Assembly (NCBI GenBank): GCA_046483165.1
Contig: JAWODQ010000096.1
Location: 7,667 to 71,666, forward strand
Reading direction: 5' to 3'
Length of the DNA: 64,000 nt
Source: Bacillota bacterium
GTDB taxonomy: Bacteria; Bacillota; Sulfobacillia; SLMV01
Shown: piece after piece, positions 27,174-43,496 of the stretch
Numbering within the stretch: position 1 is the stretch's first letter
How the letters are laid out: the number at the start of each line of letters is the position of its first letter
Program-made: the position numbers and the translations under genes
Notes under the pieces: generated by a model
Seen by the model: only the letters and a program-made list of their open reading frames with translations
Told to the model about the DNA's origin: nothing
The model's database searches: none

Positions 27174-27215
27174 ATGTGAATTGCGTCACTAATTAGATTG
27201 TGATATGGTTCACAT
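27174..27215. promoter_or_regulatory. Two tandem Rex-like operator sites (candidate redox-responsive repressor sites)
   Basis: Site 1 is ATGTGAAttgcGTCACTA (27174..27191). Site 2 is TTGTGATatggTTCACAT (27198..27215), matching 16/18 of TTGTGAAnnnnTTCACAA. They lie ~100 nt upstream of the ECF-S gene, which precedes the hydrogenase operon. Confidence 0.4.
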
Positions 27216-27893: not shown

Positions 27894-28427
27894 ATGAATA
27901 GTTTCGATGTCTGTCGCTGTACGGAAGTACCCACGCGGCACCTGTCACCGCCCTCGGTCGTTACCTCGGGTGAACGAGGGCAGTTTGACCCGGCGGATCC
28001 GGGGGGGCTGATTCCTCTGATGCAGGCCACTCAGGAGGAGTTCGGATATCTGCCGCGGTCAGAAGTTGCCCGCATCGCGGATTATCTGGGATTGTCCGAA
28101 GCTCGAGTGTACGGCGTGGCGACTTTTTACAACCAATTTCGTCTCGAACCCCTGGGCAAGAATTACGTTCAGATTTGTACCGGGACCGCCTGTCACGTGA
28201 AGGGGGCGGCCGAGATACACTCGGTACTGCGGGCCGAACTCGGCCTGGAGGGTGAGAGTACCACGACCCGAGATGGGCTCTTCACTTTGGATACGGTCGC
28301 CTGCCTGGGTGCCTGCAGTATGGCTCCCCTGGTGAATGTCAACGACGAGTTTCACGGACACATGACACCGCAAAAAGCCCTCAAATTGATTCGCGGCCTT
28401 CGGTCGAAGGAGCGTGAAGCGCGATGA
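27894..28427 (+). CDS. hydC: [FeFe]-hydrogenase complex NuoE-like [2Fe-2S] subunit (HydC/HndA type)
   Basis: Thioredoxin-like 2Fe-2S fold (CTGTACHVKGA...CLGACSMAP). The ATGA overlap with the next gene suggests coupling. Confidence 0.8.
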   Translation: MNSFDVCRCTEVPTRHLSPPSVVTSGERGQFDPADPGGLIPLMQATQEEFGYLPRSEVARIADYLGLSEARVYGVATFYNQFRLEPLGKNYVQICTGTACHVKGAAEIHSVLRAELGLEGESTTTRDGLFTLDTVACLGACSMAPLVNVNDEFHGHMTPQKALKLIRGLRSKEREAR

Positions 28428-30274
28428 ATCGAGAAGATAGCGGCTACACCACAATCATCGTCGGTACCGGTACCTGCGGATTGGCCGCGGGAGCCCGCCA
28501 GATCTACGATTACTTCGCGGAACGGATCGCGGAATCGGGCTCGGAAGATCTCGTCCTCAAAAAGACCGGTTGTCTCGGCTATTGCACCATGGAACCCATG
28601 GTAGACGTCGAGTTGCCGAAATGGCCCCGGGTGTCCTTCGGTCCGGTAACACCGGAGAACGTCGAGTTTCTTTGGGACATGATTGCCAGTGGGGGCGCCG
28701 TGCCGAAGGACTTCATTTTGGGCACGCACTCTCCGGCGGACGGCATTCATGAACTTCACGATGTCCCGCTGCTTTGGGACACGCCCTTCTTTCGTCGGCA
28801 AAAGAGGCTGGTCTTGCGCAACTCGGGCATCATAGATCCGGAATCCCTCGAGGAATACGTGGGGGTCGGAGGGTACGAGGGTCTACGATCTGCTCTAAAG
28901 ATGTCTCCCAAAGAAGTGATCGAGGAGGTCAGGCGAGCCGGGCTGCGCGGCCGCGGCGGAGCCGGTTTCCCCACCGGGTTGAAATGGCAATTCGCTCACG
29001 AAGCGGAAGGTGATGAGAAATTTATCATCTGCAACGCGGACGAAGGCGACCCCGGAGCATTTATGGATCGCTCCATACTGGAAGGTGACCCGCACGCGGT
29101 CATAGAGGGTTTGGTCATCGCCGCCTACGCCATCGGAGCCTCGGAGGGGTACGTATACTGCCGCGCCGAGTATCCCCTCGCCATCGCGCGTCTTACGGGC
29201 GCGATATCGCAGGCCAAAAGTGCCGGCTATCTCGGAGACGACATCGGCGGCAAGGGATTTTCTTTCAATCTTAAGATTAAAAAGGGTGCCGGGGCTTTCG
29301 TCTGCGGTGAAGAGACTGCGCTGATCGCCTCCATTGAGGGAAGACGAGGTATGCCCCGTCCCCGTCCACCCTACCCGGCGCAATCGGGCCTTTGGGGTAA
29401 GCCGACCAACATCAACAACGTCGAGACTATCGCGAACGTCCCGCTGATTTTGGGCGGGGGAGCCGAAGCATTTCGTAACTACGGGACGGAGAACAGTCCC
29501 GGCACCAAGGTATTCGCTCTCGCGGGGAAGGTTAAGCGAAGCGGCCTGGTCGAGGCTCCCATGGGCATGCCCCTGCGGGATATCATTTTCGATATCGGTG
29601 GTGGTGTGGCGGATGACAGGGAGTTCAAGGCCGTCCAGATAGGTGGGCCTTCCGGGGGATGCCTGCCCGAGGAGCTTTTGGATACCCCGGTTGACTACGA
29701 CTCACTGGTCGAAGTCGGAGCCATGATGGGATCCGGCGGTATGGTGGTCATGGATGAAGATACCTGCATGGTCGACGTGGCTCGTTTCTTCCTGAACTTC
29801 ACCGCCTCCGAATCCTGTGGCAAGTGCCTACCCTGCCGCGAGGGCGTGGCGCGTTTGCGGGAAACCCTAAACGGTATCGTGAGAGCTCACCGCGACGAAT
29901 CCCCCGAGGAGAGCCTGCTACGCTTCCAGGGGGTCACGATGATGGAAGAACTCGCGGAAGTCATTCAGGGGACCGCAGCGTGCGGATTAGGCCAGACGGC
30001 TCCGAATCCGGTCTTGAGTACCCTCAAGTATTTCCGCGACGAGTACGATGCCCACGTGTTCGAAAGGCGCTGTCCCGCCGGCGTATGCTCTGCGCTGTTG
30101 GAGTACTACATCGATCCCGACGTTTGTACGGGCTGCGGCCTGTGCGTGCGCAAGTGTCCCGACGACGCCATAATCGGTGAGAAACGCCACCCGCACTACA
30201 TCGCGGCGGACAAATGCATAAGTTGCGGTACCTGCCGCCAGTTCTGCCCCTTCGGTGCCATCAAGGTAAGGTAG
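28424..30274 (+). CDS. hydB: [FeFe]-hydrogenase complex NuoF-like flavoprotein subunit (HydB/HndC type; FMN + NAD(H) binding, Fe-S)
   Basis: N-terminal [2Fe-2S] thioredoxin-like domain (GTGTCGLAAGA). NuoF core (GRGGAGFPTGLKW, ...ESCGKCLPCREG). Two C-terminal ferredoxin-like Cys clusters (CTGCGLCVRKCP, CISCGTCRQFCP). Confidence 0.85.
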   Translation: MNREDSGYTTIIVGTGTCGLAAGARQIYDYFAERIAESGSEDLVLKKTGCLGYCTMEPMVDVELPKWPRVSFGPVTPENVEFLWDMIASGGAVPKDFILGTHSPADGIHELHDVPLLWDTPFFRRQKRLVLRNSGIIDPESLEEYVGVGGYEGLRSALKMSPKEVIEEVRRAGLRGRGGAGFPTGLKWQFAHEAEGDEKFIICNADEGDPGAFMDRSILEGDPHAVIEGLVIAAYAIGASEGYVYCRAEYPLAIARLTGAISQAKSAGYLGDDIGGKGFSFNLKIKKGAGAFVCGEETALIASIEGRRGMPRPRPPYPAQSGLWGKPTNINNVETIANVPLILGGGAEAFRNYGTENSPGTKVFALAGKVKRSGLVEAPMGMPLRDIIFDIGGGVADDREFKAVQIGGPSGGCLPEELLDTPVDYDSLVEVGAMMGSGGMVVMDEDTCMVDVARFFLNFTASESCGKCLPCREGVARLRETLNGIVRAHRDESPEESLLRFQGVTMMEELAEVIQGTAACGLGQTAPNPVLSTLKYFRDEYDAHVFERRCPAGVCSALLEYYIDPDVCTGCGLCVRKCPDDAIIGEKRHPHYIAADKCISCGTCRQFCPFGAIKVR

Positions 30275-30287
30275 GAGGAGAGGCCAA

Positions 30288-32042
30288 ATGTCAAAAATAA
30301 GGATGACCATAAACGAGAGACCCGTCGAGGTCGAATCCGGTGCCACGATCCTGGAGGCGGCCCGGCGCGCTCGAGTAAACATCCCCACTCTGTGTCATAT
30401 CGACGGATTGGAGCCCACGGGTTCGTGCCGAATCTGTTCGGTGGAGGTCGAAGGGCGGGCTAACCTGGTACCCTCCTGTGCCGAGCCGGCCTCGGATGGA
30501 ATGTCGGTTCGTACCAACAGCCCACGGGTCCTGACGGCCCGGCGCCATATGATTCAGTTGCTCCTGGCCAATCATCCCGACGATTGTTTGTACTGCGCGC
30601 GGGGTGGAGAATGCGACCTCCAGGACCTCGCCCAGAATGTGGGCATCAGGGAACGCGCCTGGCGACGCGGGAGACACCGGAGTCATCCCGTCGACCGCAG
30701 CAGCCCGAGCGTGGTTCGAGACCCGGAAAAATGCATTCTCTGCGGTAAGTGCGTGCGAGTGTGCGACGAAATTCAGGGTGTGGCTGCCATCGATCACGCC
30801 GGACGGGGTTTTGATAGTTTTGTCCTTCCCGCCTTCGATGACGAGCTGGCGTCTACGATTTGCGTAAACTGCGGACAGTGCGTCGCCATATGCCCCACCG
30901 GTGCCCTGGTGGAAAGAAACGACCTGGCCCGAGTCCGCCACTTCCTATCCGATGAGTCGCTGGTTACCGTGGTGCAGACGGCTCCGGCAGTCCGAGCGGC
31001 ACTGGCGTGGGAGTACGGTCTATCGGGTCGGGAGGCCGAAGCGAAGATGGTGACAGCGCTGCGGGATATGGGATTCTCCTACGTATTCGATACCCAATAC
31101 AGTGCCGACCTCACCATAATGGAGGAGGGTACGGAACTTCTGGATCGCATTCGAGAAGGTGGCCCTCTGCCGCTGATAACTTCCTGTTCGCCCGGATGGA
31201 TCAAGTTCGCAGAGCACTTCTATCCCGAACACCTGGACAATTTGTCCACGTGTAAGTCACCGCAGCAGATGCTCGGTGCCATGGTCAAGAATTACTGGGC
31301 GGAAAAGCAGGGGATCTCGCCGAAAGACATACGCGTGGTGTCGGTGATGCCCTGCACCGCCAAGAAGTTCGAGGCGGAGCGCCCCGAAATGGAAACGGTG
31401 GGCGGACGAGACGTCGACGCGGTGATAACCACCCGGGAACTGATATCCGCCTTCGCAGAGATGGGTCTGGATTTCGACGACGTGGAGGAGGGCCAATTCG
31501 ACGGCTTCCTCGGCGCCTCTTCCGGCGCCGGCGCGATATTCGGCACCACCGGTGGAGTGGCCGAGGCGGCATTGCGGACCGTCTATAATCTCCTGGTGGG
31601 GGAGAATCCGGGAGCAGATGATTTCTCCGCAGTACGAGGACCCGACGGCATAAAGGAGATAGAGATCTCCCTGCCGGAGGGAGGTTCCGTAAGAGGCGCC
31701 GTGGTACACGGGTTGCGTAACGCTCGCCGGGTCATGGACGCCATTTCTTCGGGCCAGGCGAACTACGCCTTCGTGGAGATAATGGCCTGCCCCGGCGGCT
31801 GTGTCGGTGGTGGCGGACAACCTTACGGCAACGACCGCGAGCGCACCGCGAAACTGGCGGCAGAATTGTACGAAATTGACGAGACGAGGACGATTCGCTT
31901 CTCGCACGAGAACCCGGATGTAATTCGGGCCTATCGAGAATACCTCGAGGCTCCGGGGGGGCCGGAGAGTCACCGGTTGTTACACACCACTTACCGCCCC
32001 CGGTCCCGGTATCGGGCGGAGGACGACGACCTGCTTGGCTAG
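30288..32042 (+). CDS. hydA: [FeFe] hydrogenase catalytic subunit (M3-type, HydA/HndD-like)
   Basis: N-terminal 2Fe-2S. His-ligated 4Fe-4S. Two ferredoxin-like 4Fe-4S clusters. H-cluster motifs L2 MPCTAKKFE and L3 EIMACPGGCVGGGG. The L1 motif reads TSCSPGW, with Ser where the second Cys of TSCCPxW is expected. Confidence 0.9.
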   Translation: MSKIRMTINERPVEVESGATILEAARRARVNIPTLCHIDGLEPTGSCRICSVEVEGRANLVPSCAEPASDGMSVRTNSPRVLTARRHMIQLLLANHPDDCLYCARGGECDLQDLAQNVGIRERAWRRGRHRSHPVDRSSPSVVRDPEKCILCGKCVRVCDEIQGVAAIDHAGRGFDSFVLPAFDDELASTICVNCGQCVAICPTGALVERNDLARVRHFLSDESLVTVVQTAPAVRAALAWEYGLSGREAEAKMVTALRDMGFSYVFDTQYSADLTIMEEGTELLDRIREGGPLPLITSCSPGWIKFAEHFYPEHLDNLSTCKSPQQMLGAMVKNYWAEKQGISPKDIRVVSVMPCTAKKFEAERPEMETVGGRDVDAVITTRELISAFAEMGLDFDDVEEGQFDGFLGASSGAGAIFGTTGGVAEAALRTVYNLLVGENPGADDFSAVRGPDGIKEIEISLPEGGSVRGAVVHGLRNARRVMDAISSGQANYAFVEIMACPGGCVGGGGQPYGNDRERTAKLAAELYEIDETRTIRFSHENPDVIRAYREYLEAPGGPESHRLLHTTYRPRSRYRAEDDDLLG

Positions 32043-32063: not shown

Positions 32064-34139
32064 ATGAGTGTAGTTTTCACGCTGCCCGACAAATGTCGGC
32101 GTTGTTACTACTGCGTGCGGGAATGTCCCGTTAAGGCGATACGCGTCATCGGGGGACAGGCGGAGGTCGTGGAAGATCTCTGCATCTCCTGCGGGACATG
32201 CCTGCGAGTTTGCCATCAAAAGGCCAAAACCTACCGCGACGATGTGCCGCGATTGGAAAAGATGCTGGCCGAAGATCAGCCCATAGTCGCCATCCTGGCT
32301 CCCTCCTTCGTGGCTTCTTTTACCGACGTAAAGCCGGGCCAGGTGGTGGAAGCCACCTCGCAACTGGGCTTCGATGCCGTAGTGGAGGTGGCCTTCGGAG
32401 CCGAACTGGTGGCCGATGCCTACTCGAGTTTCGTGGACGATTTCGAAAGCGGCGCCGAGGTTGCCGGCAAAGCCCCCTACATCTCCACACCCTGCCCTGC
32501 GGTGGTGAATTTCGTGGAGAAGCACCATCCGGAGCTCATGCCACATATGGTGCCGATCGTGTCGCCGATGGTCGCCCTTTCGCGTTATCTGAAGGCTCGA
32601 GCGCGCGAGAAGGGAGAACCGGTGCCCTCCATAGCCTTCTTCGGACCGTGCACTGCGAAGAAGGCGGAGACGGACTGGGGTTTGCCCGAGGATGACGATC
32701 CGGAAATCGCCTTGACCTTCCGGGAACTCGCGGCGATGTTTTCCGATCGAGATATCGACGTGGCGAAGCTTCCGAGCCGGGAATTCGACCCCCCCCACCC
32801 GACCCTGGCCCGCCTGTTTCCGGTCTCCGGTGGGCTCATCAGATCGGCCGCCCTCGCCGCCGATATATTGGATTCCTCTATCTTGGTCGCCGAGGGCAAA
32901 GAAGACGTCGAAGACGTGATATCCTCGGTGGCCAATGGCCGCGTGGACTACCACTTCGTGGATTTGCTCTTTTGTGAGGGTTGTATAGATGGGCCAGTCA
33001 TAGATTCCGATCTTTCCCTCATGGAACGAAGGGAAAGGGTGGTCAAATACACGCGCGAGGCGAGAAAACTACGCGAGTCGGAACCGCGAGAACTACCCCG
33101 GGGACTGGACCTCTCTCGGCGTTTCCGCCCGAGAGACGTATCCCTGCCCCTACCCGACGAGTCGGAAATCCGTCGGATCCTGTCGCGAGTCGGCAAGCAC
33201 GACCCCTCGGACGAACTTAACTGTGGCGCCTGCGGGTATCCTACCTGCCGGGACAAGGCCATCGCCGTTTACCGAGGCCTGGCGGAGCCGGAGATGTGCC
33301 TTCCCTACATGGTGGAACAGCTGGAAGAAGCGCTGGAGGAGCTGGAGTACTCGTATGGGGAACTGCACAGCACCTACGACAAGCTTCAGGAAACCCAGGA
33401 AGAATTGGTCCAGGCGGAAAAACTATCTTCGCTCGGACAGCTTTCGGCGGGGGTGGCGCACGAGCTGAACAATCCCCTGGGCGGGATATTGCTCTACGCG
33501 GATTTGATACGCGAAGAACAGGCGCCCGGTGAGGTGGAAGACTACGTGAAGACCATCCGACGTGAGGCGGCGCGATGCCGCGACATAGTGACGGGACTTC
33601 TGAATTTCGCCCGGCAATCGCGAGTTCAAAAGGAAGAAGTGGCCCTGAACGAATACGTCGCCAGCGTCAGTGAGGATTTCGCACGCGGTCTACCCGAGGA
33701 TATTAAGCTTAGGCTCAATCTCGATTCCTCCGACCAACTGAGGGCTGAGCTCGATCCCGGGCAGATGCGCCGCGTCTTGATAAACCTGTTGGGCAACTCC
33801 CGAGATGCCGTCGGCGACGCCGGGGAGATCACGATCTCTACCCGATACCTGGAGGGCGAAGACGAGATATTGATAGCCGTAGAGGACGACGGGGTTGGCA
33901 TCCGCGAATCCGACATGTCTCGAGTGTTCACCCCATTCTTCACCACGAAGGAACCGGGTAAAGGCACCGGATTGGGGATGCCCATCGCCTACGGAATCGT
34001 GAAAATGCACCGGGGGAAGATCGAGGTTAACTCCGAAGAGGGTCGGGGGACGGAAGTAACCATATCGATACCCCGTCGCTCGGCCCCGGATACGACCCCC
34101 GAACTTCTGGGGGTAGATCGCGAAAGACCTTTTACTTAA
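32064..34139 (+). CDS. Sensory-type [FeFe]-hydrogenase domain (HydS-like) fused to a histidine kinase
   Basis: N-terminal 2x[4Fe-4S] ferredoxin Cys motifs. H-domain with STPCPAV, GPCTAKKAE and FCEGCIDG (all four H-cluster Cys present). Cx2Cx4Cx16C motif (CGACGYPTC...C). Coiled coil. HisKA (GVAHELNNPLGG) and HATPase_c (GTGLGMPIAYGIV). Confidence 0.8.
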   Translation: MSVVFTLPDKCRRCYYCVRECPVKAIRVIGGQAEVVEDLCISCGTCLRVCHQKAKTYRDDVPRLEKMLAEDQPIVAILAPSFVASFTDVKPGQVVEATSQLGFDAVVEVAFGAELVADAYSSFVDDFESGAEVAGKAPYISTPCPAVVNFVEKHHPELMPHMVPIVSPMVALSRYLKARAREKGEPVPSIAFFGPCTAKKAETDWGLPEDDDPEIALTFRELAAMFSDRDIDVAKLPSREFDPPHPTLARLFPVSGGLIRSAALAADILDSSILVAEGKEDVEDVISSVANGRVDYHFVDLLFCEGCIDGPVIDSDLSLMERRERVVKYTREARKLRESEPRELPRGLDLSRRFRPRDVSLPLPDESEIRRILSRVGKHDPSDELNCGACGYPTCRDKAIAVYRGLAEPEMCLPYMVEQLEEALEELEYSYGELHSTYDKLQETQEELVQAEKLSSLGQLSAGVAHELNNPLGGILLYADLIREEQAPGEVEDYVKTIRREAARCRDIVTGLLNFARQSRVQKEEVALNEYVASVSEDFARGLPEDIKLRLNLDSSDQLRAELDPGQMRRVLINLLGNSRDAVGDAGEITISTRYLEGEDEILIAVEDDGVGIRESDMSRVFTPFFTTKEPGKGTGLGMPIAYGIVKMHRGKIEVNSEEGRGTEVTISIPRRSAPDTTPELLGVDRERPFT

Positions 34140-34205
34140 ACCGGCGGGGTACGCAATGTCCGCTAGGGGCGAAAGATACCCGCAATAATTACTGGAGGTG
34201 GGAAG

Positions 34206-34598
34206 ATGGCCCGCATATTGATGGTAGATGACGACGCCGATTTTTTGGATTATGCCTCCCGGGTGCTACGACGCGGCGAGCACACGGTATCTACGGCCCA
34301 CAATGGCGTGGAGGCTCTGGAGATACTGAAGAGTGACTGCGAGTTCGACCTGGCCATTTTGGATCTTATGATGGAAAAGAGCGATGAAGGTTTCACTCTC
34401 GCTCACCGGGTTCGTGAGTTTTTGGGAGAAGACGGCCATATCATGATACTTACCGGGGTTCGCCGCACCCACGATTTGGGATTCGATCTGCACTCGGCCA
34501 GCGGTAGCAAGTGGATCGACGCCGACGATTTCGTCGAGAAGCCCATTTCCTCGGAAGATCTACTCGAACGAGTCCGCCGATTGGTCGGGGAGCAGTGA
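34206..34598 (+). CDS. Single-domain response regulator (receiver only)
   Basis: 130 aa CheY-like: MVDDDADF...LDLMME...KPI, with no output domain. SD GGAGGTGGGA upstream. Confidence 0.8.
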   Translation: MARILMVDDDADFLDYASRVLRRGEHTVSTAHNGVEALEILKSDCEFDLAILDLMMEKSDEGFTLAHRVREFLGEDGHIMILTGVRRTHDLGFDLHSASGSKWIDADDFVEKPISSEDLLERVRRLVGEQ

Positions 34599-36115
34599 TG
34601 GCGGACGAGGCTTTGAGCCCCGAGGAGACTCGGGATGTGCTCTCTTTCGAGGAAACCCCGGCGGTCATCGTAATGGATGATGAGGAGTCCATCAGGCTCG
34701 GCTGCGAGAAAGTCCTGAATCGCGAAGGATTCGAGGTAACTGTAGCCCCCGACGGAGAAACCGGTTGGGATCTCCTGCGAGATGGAGACTTCGATCTGGC
34801 ATTGATAGACCTGAAAATGCCGGGAATCGACGGCATGGGGATACTGAGCCTCATTAACGAAAACCTTCCCGACGTCGTCCCGATAGTCATAACCGGTTAC
34901 GCTTCGTACGAGACCGCCGTCGAGACGGTCAAGTTGGGAGCGTATGATTACATCCCGAAACCTTTCACACCGGATGAGCTGCGCAATGTGGTGCGACGCG
35001 GACTCGAGCGACGCTTTCTGCGCCTGGCAAATCGTCGCCTGCGCGAGGAACGGCGGCGTTTCCTCCTGGATCTCACCGAGGAACGCAGTCGCCTGATGAC
35101 GATACTCCGAGCGATGTCTGACGGCGTACTCGTGGTTAACCGGCGCGGGGAACTGGTCTTGACGAACCCGGTGGGCCGGCGTTTGCTGACCGACGATTTC
35201 GACGCATCCTCCGAGAAACCACCTTCGCTTGGGCGAGTGTTGAAGTACCCGGACATAGCCGATCTGGTGGCGCGAGTGGAGTCCGATCCCGAGCTCGAGG
35301 GCTGCGATGCGGAGGTGGATACTTCTGACGATCGCGTCTTCCACTCCACCGCCACGGCCGTCCGCGACGACGATGGTACCTATCTTGGTGCCGTCATAGT
35401 ATCGCGAGATGTGACCGAGCGGCGAGAGATCGAGAAGATGAAGAGCGCCTTCGTCCGGATGGTCTCTCACGAGCTAAAATCACCCCTGGCCGCGGTCCAG
35501 GGTTACCTCGAGCTCCTTATCGACGGCGACGTATCCGAAGAGGATCGCGATCATATGCTGCGGCGCTGCCGGACGAGACTGGAAGCATTGCAGGAGATGA
35601 TCGGGGATCTTCTGGATCTGTCCCGGATCGAAAGCGGGGCCTCGGGGCGTGAACTGCGGAAGCAGGGTGTCGGCGAGGTATTGGAGGATATCGTCGAGTT
35701 GCAGCGAGATCTCGCCGCCGCGCGGGAGATAGACATTCAGCTGGAGGTCGGCGGCAGGCCGGAAATCGTGGCGGATCGGCGGGAACTGGAGGAGATATTC
35801 ACAAACCTGGTTTCCAACGCGGTGAAATACAACCGGGATGGCGGCTCCGTCTCGGTAGAAGTTGAGGATTCGGGCGACCGGCTCGTGGCAACGGTTTCCG
35901 ATACCGGTATAGGGATGGATTCGGGATCTCTGGACCATGTGTTCGACGAATTCTACAGGGTCCGCAGTGCCCAAACTGCAAAAATAGCGGGAACTGGCCT
36001 TGGCCTGGCCATCGTCAAGCGTCTCGTGGAAGCCTATGATGGAGATATCGGGGTGGAGAGCTCGCCGGGAGAGGGGACGACTTTCCGGGTGGAGCTGCCC
36101 AAAAACCCCACGTAA
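34598..36115 (+). CDS. Hybrid sensor histidine kinase (N-terminal receiver + PAS + HisKA + HATPase_c)
   Basis: Start ATG overlaps the previous stop (TGATG). REC (VMDDEESI...DLALIDLKMPGIDG). PAS-like region. HisKA (VSHELKSPLAAV). HATPase (GTGLGLAIVKRLVEAYDGDIGVES). Confidence 0.8.
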   Translation: MADEALSPEETRDVLSFEETPAVIVMDDEESIRLGCEKVLNREGFEVTVAPDGETGWDLLRDGDFDLALIDLKMPGIDGMGILSLINENLPDVVPIVITGYASYETAVETVKLGAYDYIPKPFTPDELRNVVRRGLERRFLRLANRRLREERRRFLLDLTEERSRLMTILRAMSDGVLVVNRRGELVLTNPVGRRLLTDDFDASSEKPPSLGRVLKYPDIADLVARVESDPELEGCDAEVDTSDDRVFHSTATAVRDDDGTYLGAVIVSRDVTERREIEKMKSAFVRMVSHELKSPLAAVQGYLELLIDGDVSEEDRDHMLRRCRTRLEALQEMIGDLLDLSRIESGASGRELRKQGVGEVLEDIVELQRDLAAAREIDIQLEVGGRPEIVADRRELEEIFTNLVSNAVKYNRDGGSVSVEVEDSGDRLVATVSDTGIGMDSGSLDHVFDEFYRVRSAQTAKIAGTGLGLAIVKRLVEAYDGDIGVESSPGEGTTFRVELPKNPT

Positions 36116-36125
36116 ACGTGTGGCG

Positions 36126-36989
36126 ATGGGAGGAATTCAATTGAGTACCGTCTATCTGAACGGCCAATTCGTTCGAGACACCGAAGCCAGCATTTCCCCG
36201 GAGGACAGGGGGTTTCTGTTCGCCGACGCCCTCTACGAGGTAATCAGGATTTATGGGGGCAGGCCATTTTGTGCCCGGGACCATCTCGACAGATTGCGTT
36301 TCGGGGCCAGGGAACTCGGATTGGACGTACCCTTTGGCGACGAGGAGTTTTTTGATATTGTCGAAGAATTGCTTTCGGCGAACGAGCTCGGGGAAGCCGC
36401 CCTGTACCTCCAGGTAAGCCGTGGTGCCGAACCCCGTCAGCATCGCCTGCCGAAACAGTGTACCCCGACCGTATACGCAAATGTCCGCCCGGTGTCGCGG
36501 CCCGACCCGGAGATGGCGGAAGATGGCGTCAAGGTCATCACCCATCCCGACATCCGCGGCGGACTGTGTTACGTCAAGACGACGGCCCTGCTTTTCAACT
36601 GTCTTGCCGCCACCCGAGCAAAGGAAGCGGATGCTTTCGAAGCCCTCTTCGTGCGCCAGGGTTTCGTCACCGAAGGAAGCATGACCTCGGCGTTTTGCGT
36701 AATCGACGGGACGTTGTACACACATCCCCTCGCCAACATACTACCCGGCATAACCAGACTGAACGTCTTGAGATTGGCGCGGCGACACGGATGGGAGTAC
36801 GAGGAGAGGGCATTGCCGGTTGGCCGATTTATCGAGGCGGATGAGGCTTTCATCACCGGCACCGTCTCCGAGATAGTACCGGTCGTGCGGGTGGACGACG
36901 TGACCATAGGGGACGGCGGGATCGGCCCGGTGACCCAAAGGGTGCAGAGGGCGTTCGAGGACCTGATCCGCGAAGAATGTGACGGCTGA
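36126..36989 (+). CDS. Class IV aminotransferase (D-amino-acid / branched-chain aminotransferase family)
   Basis: 287 aa. ...FADALYEVIRIYGG...EAFITGTVSEIVPVVRVD matches the fold-type IV PLP enzyme pattern. Starts 10 nt after the hybrid kinase stop. Confidence 0.8.
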   Translation: MGGIQLSTVYLNGQFVRDTEASISPEDRGFLFADALYEVIRIYGGRPFCARDHLDRLRFGARELGLDVPFGDEEFFDIVEELLSANELGEAALYLQVSRGAEPRQHRLPKQCTPTVYANVRPVSRPDPEMAEDGVKVITHPDIRGGLCYVKTTALLFNCLAATRAKEADAFEALFVRQGFVTEGSMTSAFCVIDGTLYTHPLANILPGITRLNVLRLARRHGWEYEERALPVGRFIEADEAFITGTVSEIVPVVRVDDVTIGDGGIGPVTQRVQRAFEDLIREECDG

Positions 36990-42899: not shown

Positions 42900-43496
42900 G
42901 TGCCCAGCGACGCGAACTGTGTTCCCGAAGAGGAGCCGAAGGACGAGGTCCGCTCTCGCCGAAGAGAGGAAGAGTTGCGAGAGCAGCTCAGGCTGGTGGG
43001 CGAGGAAGCGGAGGATCTCAGGGAACAGGTAGATTCCCTGCGCGATGCCCTGGCCCGGGCGCGCGCGGATTACAAGAATTTGAAAAAACGGCAGAGTCGC
43101 CGCATGGAACAGATGCGGGATGAGATGCGGGGGGAGATCGTAGGCAGTTTTCTTCCCGTGATCGATGACCTGAATCAGGTTTTGCAAAACACCGCGGACC
43201 GATCGGATGACCCCGTGCGCCAGGGGGTGGAAATGATACTCGTCAAGATCGAAGATATCCTTTCCGATATGGATGTATCTCGAATCGAAACCGTGGGAGA
43301 GGATTTCGATCCCAACTGGCACGAGGCCTTGGAATACGTGCCCGCGGACGATCGACCGGATGGCACCGTGATTGCAGAATTGAGTGCGGGGTTTAGAATG
43401 AAAGATCGACTCCTCAGGCCGGCCCGGGTGCGAGTGGCTCGGAACGCGTCCGAGGAGAATTCAACAGATTCCCGCGACGACGTTAAGGAGGAGTAA
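42900..43496 (+). CDS. grpE: Nucleotide exchange factor GrpE
   Basis: GrpE coiled-coil and beta domain ([18 protein letters not shown]...[44 protein letters not shown]). Start chosen at GTG 42900 after GGAGG. The ORF extends to 42840. Confidence 0.8.

Follow-up and report, generated by a model that had tools for sequence, protein, structure and literature searches.

A putative H2-sensing signalling unit: a kinase-fused sensory-type [FeFe] hydrogenase and the neighbouring receiver and kinase genes in a Bacillota bacterium

Introduction

Among the sensory [FeFe] hydrogenases only TmHydS of Thermotoga maritima (group C, M2f) and TamHydS of Thermoanaerobacter mathranii (group D, M2e) have been characterised biochemically, neither is fused to a kinase, and papers from 2022 to April 2026 still term the sensory role of HydS putative (PMC8924675, PMC10055695, PMC13104023). 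Relatives linked to a histidine kinase have been predicted. HydDB (2016) lists [FeFe] group C1 as "histidine kinase-linked (putative)" (PMC5037454), and a 2024 study of Hydrogenedentota describes a group-C3 protein, "BfuT", which carries a histidine kinase domain and is encoded directly downstream of the A3 hydrogenase gene in sub-type V BfuABC clusters; this form occurs in Hydrogenedentota, Caldithrix abyssi and Bacteroidota, and response regulators are not mentioned (PMC11406978). Here we describe a protein of this kind, HydS-HK (691 amino acid residues; 32064..34139, + strand), and the signalling genes next to it, in a 64-kb stretch (the window) of contig JAWODQ010000096.1 from a Bacillota bacterium.

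Analogous systems are found among the [NiFe] regulatory hydrogenases. In Cupriavidus necator (HoxBC-HoxJ-HoxA) and Rhodobacter capsulatus (HupUV-HupT-HupR) control is exerted through an NtrC-family regulator. These systems (HydDB [NiFe] group 2b) share with the one proposed here a sensor hydrogenase of low activity and a histidine kinase controlling hydrogenase genes (PMC5037454). Their metal site and fold are unrelated, and their sensor and kinase are separate proteins linked via PAS, whereas HydS-HK is one polypeptide and a second kinase is interposed. No [NiFe] subunit domains were detected by Pfam in the window cluster, and the likeness is best regarded as functional analogy only.

The sequence of HydS-HK is identical to NCBI MFO7942168.1, from a metagenome-assembled genome (MAG) of a Bacillota bacterium. 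Its family is very probably that of the kinase-domain BfuT and the HydDB kinase-linked group, and its locus is not rare: it is one member of a large and widespread family that was noted in HydDB (PMC5037454), was described beside A3 genes (PMC11406978) and is biochemically untested. An initial annotation, made from the nucleotide sequence alone, had likewise held that kinase-linked sensory hydrogenases were predicted and none characterised, which agrees with the literature for the kinase-fused type (PMC5037454, PMC11406978, PMC13104023, PMC8924675). What is added here to PMC5037454 and PMC11406978, neither of which describes a conserved downstream receiver and REC-kinase, a heptad-phased linker or a partner logic, is the conservation across phyla of a three-gene signalling unit, a heptad-locked helix from cluster to histidine, and a suggested order of partners. 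We consider it probable that HydS-HK is a cytoplasmic H2 (redox) sensor kinase, which reports on the neighbouring electron-bifurcating-type HydABC by way of a two-kinase cascade.

Results and Discussion

Domain Architecture and H-Cluster Site

Coordinates of open reading frames (ORFs) were taken from a program-made list, and domains were assigned by Pfam profile search; the hydrogenase and signalling genes and their domains all lie on the + strand. HydS-HK is laid out as two [4Fe-4S] clusters, an H-cluster domain, a Cx2Cx4Cx16C cluster motif, HisKA and HATPase_c (Fer4, residues 8-54; Fe_hyd_lg_C, 73-311; FeS PF04060, 385-414; HisKA, 457-518; HATPase_c, 564-672), and Pfam finds no PAS domain in it. 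The Fe_hyd_lg_C match (32280..32996) scores 162 bits against a curated cut-off of 22.1.

For residue mapping, HydS-HK was aligned with its 119 closest homologues and with the catalytic HydA of the window, and was placed through the latter, which aligns without gaps to residues 247-401 of Clostridium pasteurianum hydrogenase I (CpI), on CpI numbering. The motifs S141-T-P143-C144-P-A-V, G194-P-C196-T-A-K199-K-A-E and F-C304-E-G-C307-I-D-G supply all four cysteine ligands of the H-cluster (C144 = C300, C196 = C355, C304 = C499, C307 = C503). The other residues that hold the cluster are also present, namely K199 (K358), E202 (E361), S167-P168 (S323-P324) and the cyanide-binding loop A79-P80-S81. 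With the exception of S81 and E202, which are conserved in at least 90%, the H-cluster-holding residues are invariant over the 119 sequences, as are G194 and L302. Modelled by AlphaFold2 from the 119-sequence alignment, the protein has a mean predicted local distance difference test score (pLDDT) of 85.8, rising above 90 over most of the H-domain, and Foldseek matches this domain to the hydrogenases of Desulfovibrio desulfuricans (E 4e-22), T. kivui and CpI (3e-17).

The proton pathway presents a different picture from that of a catalytic enzyme. The position of the proton-transfer residue Cys299 of CpI is occupied by Pro143, as it is by Pro in 111 of the 120 family members, and further replacements are found at E279 (Tyr120), E282 (Ser122), R286 (Asp126) and S319 (Val163), together with Gly194 at M353 and Leu302 at M497. 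All five pathway residues (E279, E282, R286, C299, S319) are kept in the window HydA. A pathway lost in this way has also been described for TmHydS and TamHydS, which are slow and putatively sensory (PMC10055695, PMC8163306).

On either side of the H-domain lie the accessory clusters. The N-terminal two-[4Fe-4S] ferredoxin domain (32085..32225; Pfam Fer4 families) has two sets of cysteines, C11, C14, C17 and C21, and C40, C43, C46 and C50; the second set is invariant and the first is conserved in at least 90%, the exceptions being sequences without an N-terminus. The C-terminal motif (33216..33305), C387-x2-C390-x4-C395-x16-C412, is invariant in all four cysteines over the 119 sequences. An N-terminal two-[4Fe-4S] domain and a C-terminal Cx2Cx4Cx16C motif are what defines HydS (PMC8163306), and as judged from its sequence HydS-HK possesses the defining features of the putative sensory hydrogenases of groups C and D except the PAS domain. 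The initial annotation had called three ORFs here and, in the first of them, a complete H-cluster domain with its four cysteines in these motifs, Pro in place of the proton-transfer Cys, the extra cysteine motif, and an in-frame fusion to HisKA and HATPase_c without PAS; all of this is borne out by the profiles, the alignment and the homologues.

TmHydS shares with HydS-HK the N-terminal two-[4Fe-4S] domain, all the H-domain cluster ligands, the C-terminal Cx2Cx4Cx16C motif, a residue other than Cys at C299, Gly at M353 and a genomic association with a bifurcating hydrogenase (PMC10055695, PMC8163306). It has Ala at C299 and Ser at M497, where HydS-HK has Pro and Leu, and it ends in a PAS domain with no kinase, whereas the cluster domain of HydS-HK runs straight into HisKA-HATPase_c; a PAS domain after the C-terminal cluster is the definition of group C (M2f), and HydS-HK is without one. 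TamHydS is similar in its lack of PAS, its Leu at M497 and its three-cluster layout (PMC8163306). It differs in Ser at M353 (Gly in HydS-HK) and in being a stand-alone protein; its gene is flanked by one for a kinase-like ATPase, so that any kinase is a separate gene product (PMC8163306), whereas that of HydS-HK is fused.

Kinase Core and the Predicted Cluster-to-Histidine Helix

In HydS-HK the place of the PAS domain of HydS proteins is taken by a complete NtrB/ZraS-like kinase core. Its HisKA/DHp domain (33432..33617; 58 bits) carries the phospho-acceptor His466 (33459..33461) in the motif AHELNNPL, and its HATPase_c domain (33753..34079; 89 bits) has N574/N578, D608-x-G610-x-G612 and G634-T-G-L-G638. 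Within the family alignment H466, N469, N470 and P471 are invariant, as are N574/N578, D608-G610-G612, F625 and G634-G638. The best PDB match of the core is ZraS (9jfj, 120 bits), and the C-terminal part of the AlphaFold2 model is matched by Foldseek to the kinases ZraS, CckA and HK853.

The last cluster cysteine and the DHp domain are joined in the model by a single DSSP helix (residues 413-469; 33300..33470), which continues into the DHp helix with His466. The distance between the last cluster Cys and the phospho-accepting His was counted in residues in 140 homologues: it is 47 in 114 of them, 54 in 19, including the window protein (Cys412-His466), 40 in six, and 44 in one. Thus 139 of the 140 have a spacing of 40, 47 or 54, steps that are exact heptads. 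A PAS domain hidden between cluster and kinase was considered and is ruled out by Pfam, by the length of the linker (40-54 residues) and by the single helix of the model. Such spacing, combined with one modelled helix, is what would be expected of a signalling helix that forms a coiled coil and must keep its register. From the heptad spacing and the uninterrupted helix 413-469 we argue that the C-terminal [4Fe-4S] domain may act as a direct mechanical input to DHp.

The sensory module is also found with another output. In a Geobacteraceae MAG (L028, 10001..12268) a sigma54 activator (Sigma54_activat plus HTH_8) directly follows the Fer4-H-domain-FeS module in one fusion protein, which would be a one-component "H2-sensing" enhancer-binding protein, and activators of the Fer4-H-FeS type have been listed for Clostridiales (PMC6615313). 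These Fer4-Fe_hyd_lg_C-FeS-Sigma54_activat-HTH_8 proteins have in common with HydS-HK the same sensory module, N-terminal to a signalling output, and differ in being one-component transcription activators rather than kinases. Their existence suggests that the Fer4-H-FeS module behaves as a portable input domain.

Conservation of the Fusion and of the Gene Order

A database search with HydS-HK gave 7137 matches, the best 120 of which (44-100% identity) were examined. All 120 combine Fe_hyd_lg_C, FeS, HisKA and HATPase_c, at a coverage that is almost always 94-100%; one is a partial sequence covering 70%. In a scan of one genome per species a full-length homologue turned up in 29 genomes, which span more than 10 phyla: these include Planctomycetota (Kuenenia stuttgartiensis among them), Melioribacteraceae/Ignavibacteriota, Bacteroidota, Desulfobacterota, Myxococcota, Marinimicrobia, Bdellovibrionota, Spirochaetota, Elusimicrobiota, Syntrophorhabdaceae and Bacillota. 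A frameshift or other fusion artefact was considered and discarded, the same architecture being present in the 120 best matches and the 29 species genomes.

It might be asked whether HydS-HK is simply an ordinary, catalytically relevant hydrogenase, its kinase domain having an unrelated role or its adjacency to signalling genes being coincidental. TmHydS and TamHydS do retain measurable H2 turnover (PMC10055695, PMC8163306), but the missing proton pathway, the heptad-phased linker and the retention, in more than 10 phyla, of the fusion together with the genes downstream make this highly improbable.

Immediately upstream of hydS-HK, on the same strand (27894..32042), lie the genes of a HydABC-type hydrogenase: hydC (27894..28427), for a NuoE-like 2Fe-2S subunit (2Fe-2S_thioredx, 158 bits); hydB (28424..30274), for a NuoF-like FMN/NADH subunit with two C-terminal [4Fe-4S] clusters (Complex1_51K, NADH_4Fe-4S, Fer4); and hydA (30288..32042), for a catalytic [FeFe] hydrogenase of group-A3 type (Fer2_4, NADH-G_4Fe-4S_3, Fer4, Fe_hyd_lg_C at 308 bits, Fe_hyd_SSU). 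The best PDB relatives of this HydA are A. woodii HydA1 and CpI. The start codon of hydS-HK (ATG) follows a strong ribosome-binding site, GGAAGGAGGG, 21 nt past the hydA stop. Downstream are genes for a stand-alone receiver of 130 residues (34206..34598) and for a REC-PAS-HisKA-HATPase kinase of 505 residues, the second kinase (34598..36115), whose ATG at 34598 overlaps the receiver TGA (34596-34598) by 1 nt. From hydC to the second kinase the six genes are separated by -4, 13, 21, 66 and -1 nt, in keeping with the proposal of the initial annotation that the signalling genes share an operon with the catalytic hydrogenase.

The order hydC-hydB-hydA-hydS_HK-REC-REC_HK recurs in Planctomycetota, Ignavibacteriota, Bacteroidota, Desulfobacterota, Myxococcota, Marinimicrobia, Bdellovibrionota and Bacillota. 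In 20 of the 29 genomes hydS-HK directly follows hydC-hydB-hydA, and in two more the genes are within 8 kb. A REC-kinase is encoded downstream of HydS-HK in 26 of 29 (of the other three, two are truncated by a contig end), and a receiver of about 130 residues lies between both kinases in 22. At least four loci (L014, L018, L026, L040) have HydS-HK without an adjacent HydABC.

The tight linkage to hydA, with its 21-nt gap in the window and its recurrence directly after hydA in 20 of 29 genomes, would also be expected if HydS-HK were a fourth, regulatory subunit of HydABC, the T subunit of PMC11406978, which with the stand-alone receiver controls the enzyme post-translationally and not at transcription. 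The window encodes no DNA-binding output, and stand-alone receivers repeatedly flank hydrogenase structural genes, for example as a second REC before the second cluster of the Melioribacteraceae/Ignavibacteria loci described below. We regard this as distinctly unlikely: physical association with HydABC is unsupported, the loci with HydS-HK and no adjacent HydABC speak against it, as does a Thermoguttaceae locus (L008) with a linked NtrC-type regulator and a perfect sigma54 promoter, and the HydS-sigma54-activator fusions argue for transcriptional outputs.

In synteny to the right, the two closest relatives on long contigs (P0006 and P0008) are like the window, with REC, REC-kinase, class IV aminotransferase, ComEC, holA, rpsT, hrcA and grpE; in one of them hydG-hydF-hydE is inserted between HydS-HK and the receiver. 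A related Bacillota MAG (L082; GCA_003551215.1, 442..19071) has two sensory hydrogenases, a 560-residue HydS with a weak DRTGG match and HydS-HK; its cluster also contains two small HATPase-only proteins, a 1022-residue NuoF fusion, and hydG-hydF-hydE between HydS-HK and the receiver genes. The Melioribacteraceae/Ignavibacteria loci (L002-L006) have, after the trio and at approximately 13.9-19.5 kb in each, another stand-alone receiver, a second hydrogenase cluster (NuoE-like, a short 400-residue NuoF-like and a 637-residue HydA) and a 474-residue kinase. This second-cluster region probably corresponds to MROS_2480-2488 of Melioribacter roseus, of which the hydrogenase subunits MROS_2480-2482, 2487 and 2488 were detected under fermentative conditions only (PMC5492636). 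The sensor genes of M. roseus are presumably the four that lie between MROS_2482 and MROS_2487.

In the window HydA the P1 motif is TSCSPGW and not TSCCPxW (31185..31205; residues approximately 298-304), with Ser aligned to the CpI cluster ligand C300. A. woodii HydA1 (PDB 7q4v) shares this motif, as do 14 of 24 neighbouring HydAs, and it has been commented on before (PMC3787301). A class IV aminotransferase gene (36126..36989) starts about 10 nt after the second-kinase stop. L081 and L082, the two closest relatives, have it at this position too, so that it and the signalling genes may form one transcript in the window lineage.

The Stand-Alone Receiver and the Second Kinase

The stand-alone receiver matches Response_reg only, which upholds its description by the initial annotation as a CheY-like receiver without an output domain. 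It has D9/D10, the phospho-acceptor D53 (34362..34364), T83 and K112, and an insertion of about 10 residues with a conserved Trp103; in 23 orthologues the phospho-acceptor Asp, the Lys and the acidic-pocket residues are conserved. Against PDB it gives generic weak matches, the nearest being to the OmpR family (YycF, DrrD; 41 bits).

The second kinase begins with an NtrC-type receiver domain (34664..34993; 93 bits; phospho-acceptor D71, 34808..34810), the phospho-acceptor Asp, Lys and acidic-pocket residues of which are conserved across orthologues, and whose best PDB matches are the NtrC1 and NtrC4 receivers (77 bits). It is followed by PAS_4 (35108..35428; 36.5 bits) and by HisKA and HATPase_c (35438..36106; 61 and 108 bits), with His291 (35468..35470) in SHELKSPL. 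PAS is found in only about 10 of 26 orthologues and is absent from 16, and would seem to be dispensable. The core has its best PDB matches among WalK/VicK/HK853-type kinases (117-125 bits), and 27 orthologues retain its H, N, G1 and G2 boxes. The domains and the start/stop overlap are thus as first annotated; the label "hybrid kinase" does not fit, the receiver being N-terminal and not at the usual C-terminal position.

The initial annotation had further proposed a multi-step phosphorelay, and this part we do not retain. None of the three signalling proteins has an Hpt-family match in Pfam at E <= 0.01, and the second phospho-His lies in a complete, ATP-binding HisKA-HATPase_c kinase. With no histidine phosphotransfer (HPt) domain, the arrangement would be a two-kinase cascade rather than a classical His-Asp-His-Asp phosphorelay.

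The order of the cascade can be approached through kinases of related loci. The nearest non-HydS kinases adjoin NtrC-type regulators; at least 18 such regulators are present in related loci without a hydrogenase module, most of them directly downstream of the NtrB-like kinase that matched the query. A profile of the receivers of these regulators scores 99-160 bits against the second-kinase receiver (window 137) and 33-63 bits against the stand-alone receiver (window 56). The ZraS/NtrB-like core of HydS-HK, the NtrC-like receiver of the second kinase and these scores point to HydS-HK acting on the latter; the WalK/VicK/HK853-like core of the second kinase and the weak affinity of the stand-alone receiver to the WalR/OmpR family point to the second step. 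The most economical reading would therefore lead from HydS-HK to Asp71 of the second kinase, and from there to the stand-alone receiver, to an unlinked regulator, or to both. This order is suggested by family-level matching and not by demonstrated pairing, and it is equally conceivable that the stand-alone receiver serves HydS-HK as a phosphate sink.

Transcriptional Control and Output

Apart from the genes described, the 64-kb window contains no other receiver or kinase, no sigma54 (GAFTGA) activator, no Rex gene and no HydEFG gene, so that the initial annotation was correct in finding no DNA-binding output encoded at the locus. Rfam families are not matched anywhere in the window, and a scan of the cluster for sigma70 promoters and terminators gave results at chance level.

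Two tandem Rex-operator-like palindromes (27174..27215), ATGTGAATTGCGTCACTA with three mismatches and TTGTGATATGGTTCACAT with two mismatches to TTGTGAANNNNTTCACAA, lie upstream of a small energy-coupling factor (ECF) S-component gene (probable start ATG 27318) and of the hyd operon. Palindromes with at most three mismatches number four in 64 kb (1.21 expected), half of them within the 42 bp of 27174..27215. At related loci Rex genes flank the cluster in nine cases, and near-consensus Rex boxes occur upstream of rex or hyd genes in five, three of them with an adjacent rex gene. An unlinked Rex is thus a candidate for transcriptional control of the hyd operon. In three Bacteroidota loci (L011, L015, L016) Rex and then a bifunctional riboflavin kinase/FAD synthetase (RibF) are encoded just downstream of the REC-kinase; RibF there, and the ECF S-component gene of the window, may link flavin supply to the flavin-containing HydB.

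Redox control being common at these operons, as the Rex genes at nine related loci and the Rex-like operators of the window indicate, HydS-HK might itself use its [4Fe-4S] clusters to sense not H2 but intracellular redox poise (ferredoxin/NADH, or the electron load of HydABC), the H-domain being a structural or redox relic or merely equilibrating with H2. Its three accessory clusters, including a surface-type N-terminal ferredoxin domain, are compatible with this, and the TamHydS clusters that respond to H2 are the N-terminal ones alone (PMC13104023). As a relic, however, the H-domain would be hard to explain: among sequences that diverge by 44-76%, conservation of the residues that hold the [2Fe] subcluster never falls below 90%, and most of these residues are invariant. 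TmHydS and TamHydS, moreover, each take up an H-cluster and show reactivity towards H2 (PMC10055695, PMC8163306). We judge a pure redox-poise sensor to be unlikely, if still worth bearing in mind.

As to sigma54, the only candidate upstream of the window hydC was TGGCAC-N5-GGGCG (three mismatches), which is expected about once per 2 kb by chance and was rejected. Among the related loci perfect sites are found only in L003 and L008, and a linked NtrC-type regulator only in L008, the Thermoguttaceae genome, where a divergent REC-sigma54-HTH (NtrC-type) regulator is accompanied by a perfect -24/-12 promoter 64 nt before hydC. This combination of NtrC-type regulator and sigma54 promoter is analogous to that of the HoxJ and HupT systems. 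Elsewhere in the window a perfect sigma54 -24/-12 consensus, TGGCACCGTGATTGCA, is located at 43361..43376 (+) in the 3' end of grpE, approximately 150 nt upstream of dnaK; about 0.06 would be expected by chance in the window.

Output through an unlinked transcriptional regulator and direct control at the protein level by the stand-alone receiver are both possible. In an extreme version of the latter, HydS-HK, the REC-kinase and the stand-alone receiver would form a self-contained, non-transcriptional H2 feedback circuit, in which the phosphorylated receiver binds HydABC (or Rex) directly and throttles H2 production. This would explain the absence of a linked DNA-binding output in most genomes, and we offer it as a speculation that is rather unlikely to be correct. 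Were it true, the heptad-locked helix from [4Fe-4S] to DHp would be a previously undescribed conversion of the redox state of a metallocluster into kinase output.

Proposed Mechanism

For HydS-HK as an H2 (redox) sensor kinase we propose the following. The H-domain would bind a normal H-cluster, and the disabled proton pathway (Pro at C299, Tyr at E279, Val at S319) would make H2 turnover slow, so that H2 sets the redox state of the accessory clusters. The C-terminal [4Fe-4S] domain is presumably joined to His466 of DHp by one continuous, heptad-phased coiled-coil helix, through which a redox or conformational change at the C-terminal cluster would switch the balance of autokinase and phosphatase in a dimeric ZraS/NtrB-type core, whatever the sign of the response to H2. 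The phosphoryl group would most likely pass to Asp71 in the NtrC-type receiver of the second kinase and gate that WalK/HK853-type enzyme, which in turn may act on one or both of two targets, the stand-alone 130-residue receiver and an unlinked response regulator; a competing phosphate sink is an equally possible role for the receiver. The final output would tune the expression or the activity of the hydrogenase.

The H2-sensing interpretation is strengthened by the synteny across phyla, by the invariant H-cluster and kinase residues and by the heptad-phased linker. Several points weigh against it. No HydS protein has experimental support for signalling H2; at physiological pH H2 does not reduce the C-terminal cluster of TamHydS, that cluster has little influence on catalysis, and the authors see cluster-based signalling models challenged (PMC13104023). 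There is no output regulator within the 64-kb window, where the sole promoter-proximal regulatory signal found is Rex-like and not of a two-component kind, and the sigma54-like site before hydC is a weak one, no better than chance. Finally, the adjacent-gene rule for kinase partners would favour the stand-alone receiver as first acceptor, and matching at the level of families is indirect.

Significance

The conversion of H2 into a cellular signal by "sensory" [FeFe] hydrogenases is still putative, and TmHydS and TamHydS are without a measurable output. HydS-HK, though unsurprising to a hydrogenase specialist, is well suited to a direct test of H2 signalling by HydS. As a fusion in a single polypeptide it offers a simple read-out, H2-dependent autophosphorylation and phosphotransfer to the two neighbouring receivers, and its invariant cluster ligands and heptad-phased linker are specific targets for mutation. 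Its use as an H2 biosensor that can be encoded genetically is also conceivable. Many anaerobes have the module behind HydABC (Kuenenia, Melioribacteraceae MAGs, Bacteroidota), and the cultured Melioribacter roseus and Caldithrix abyssi presumably carry it as well; it may therefore provide feedback control of H2 production in fermentation and syntrophy generally.

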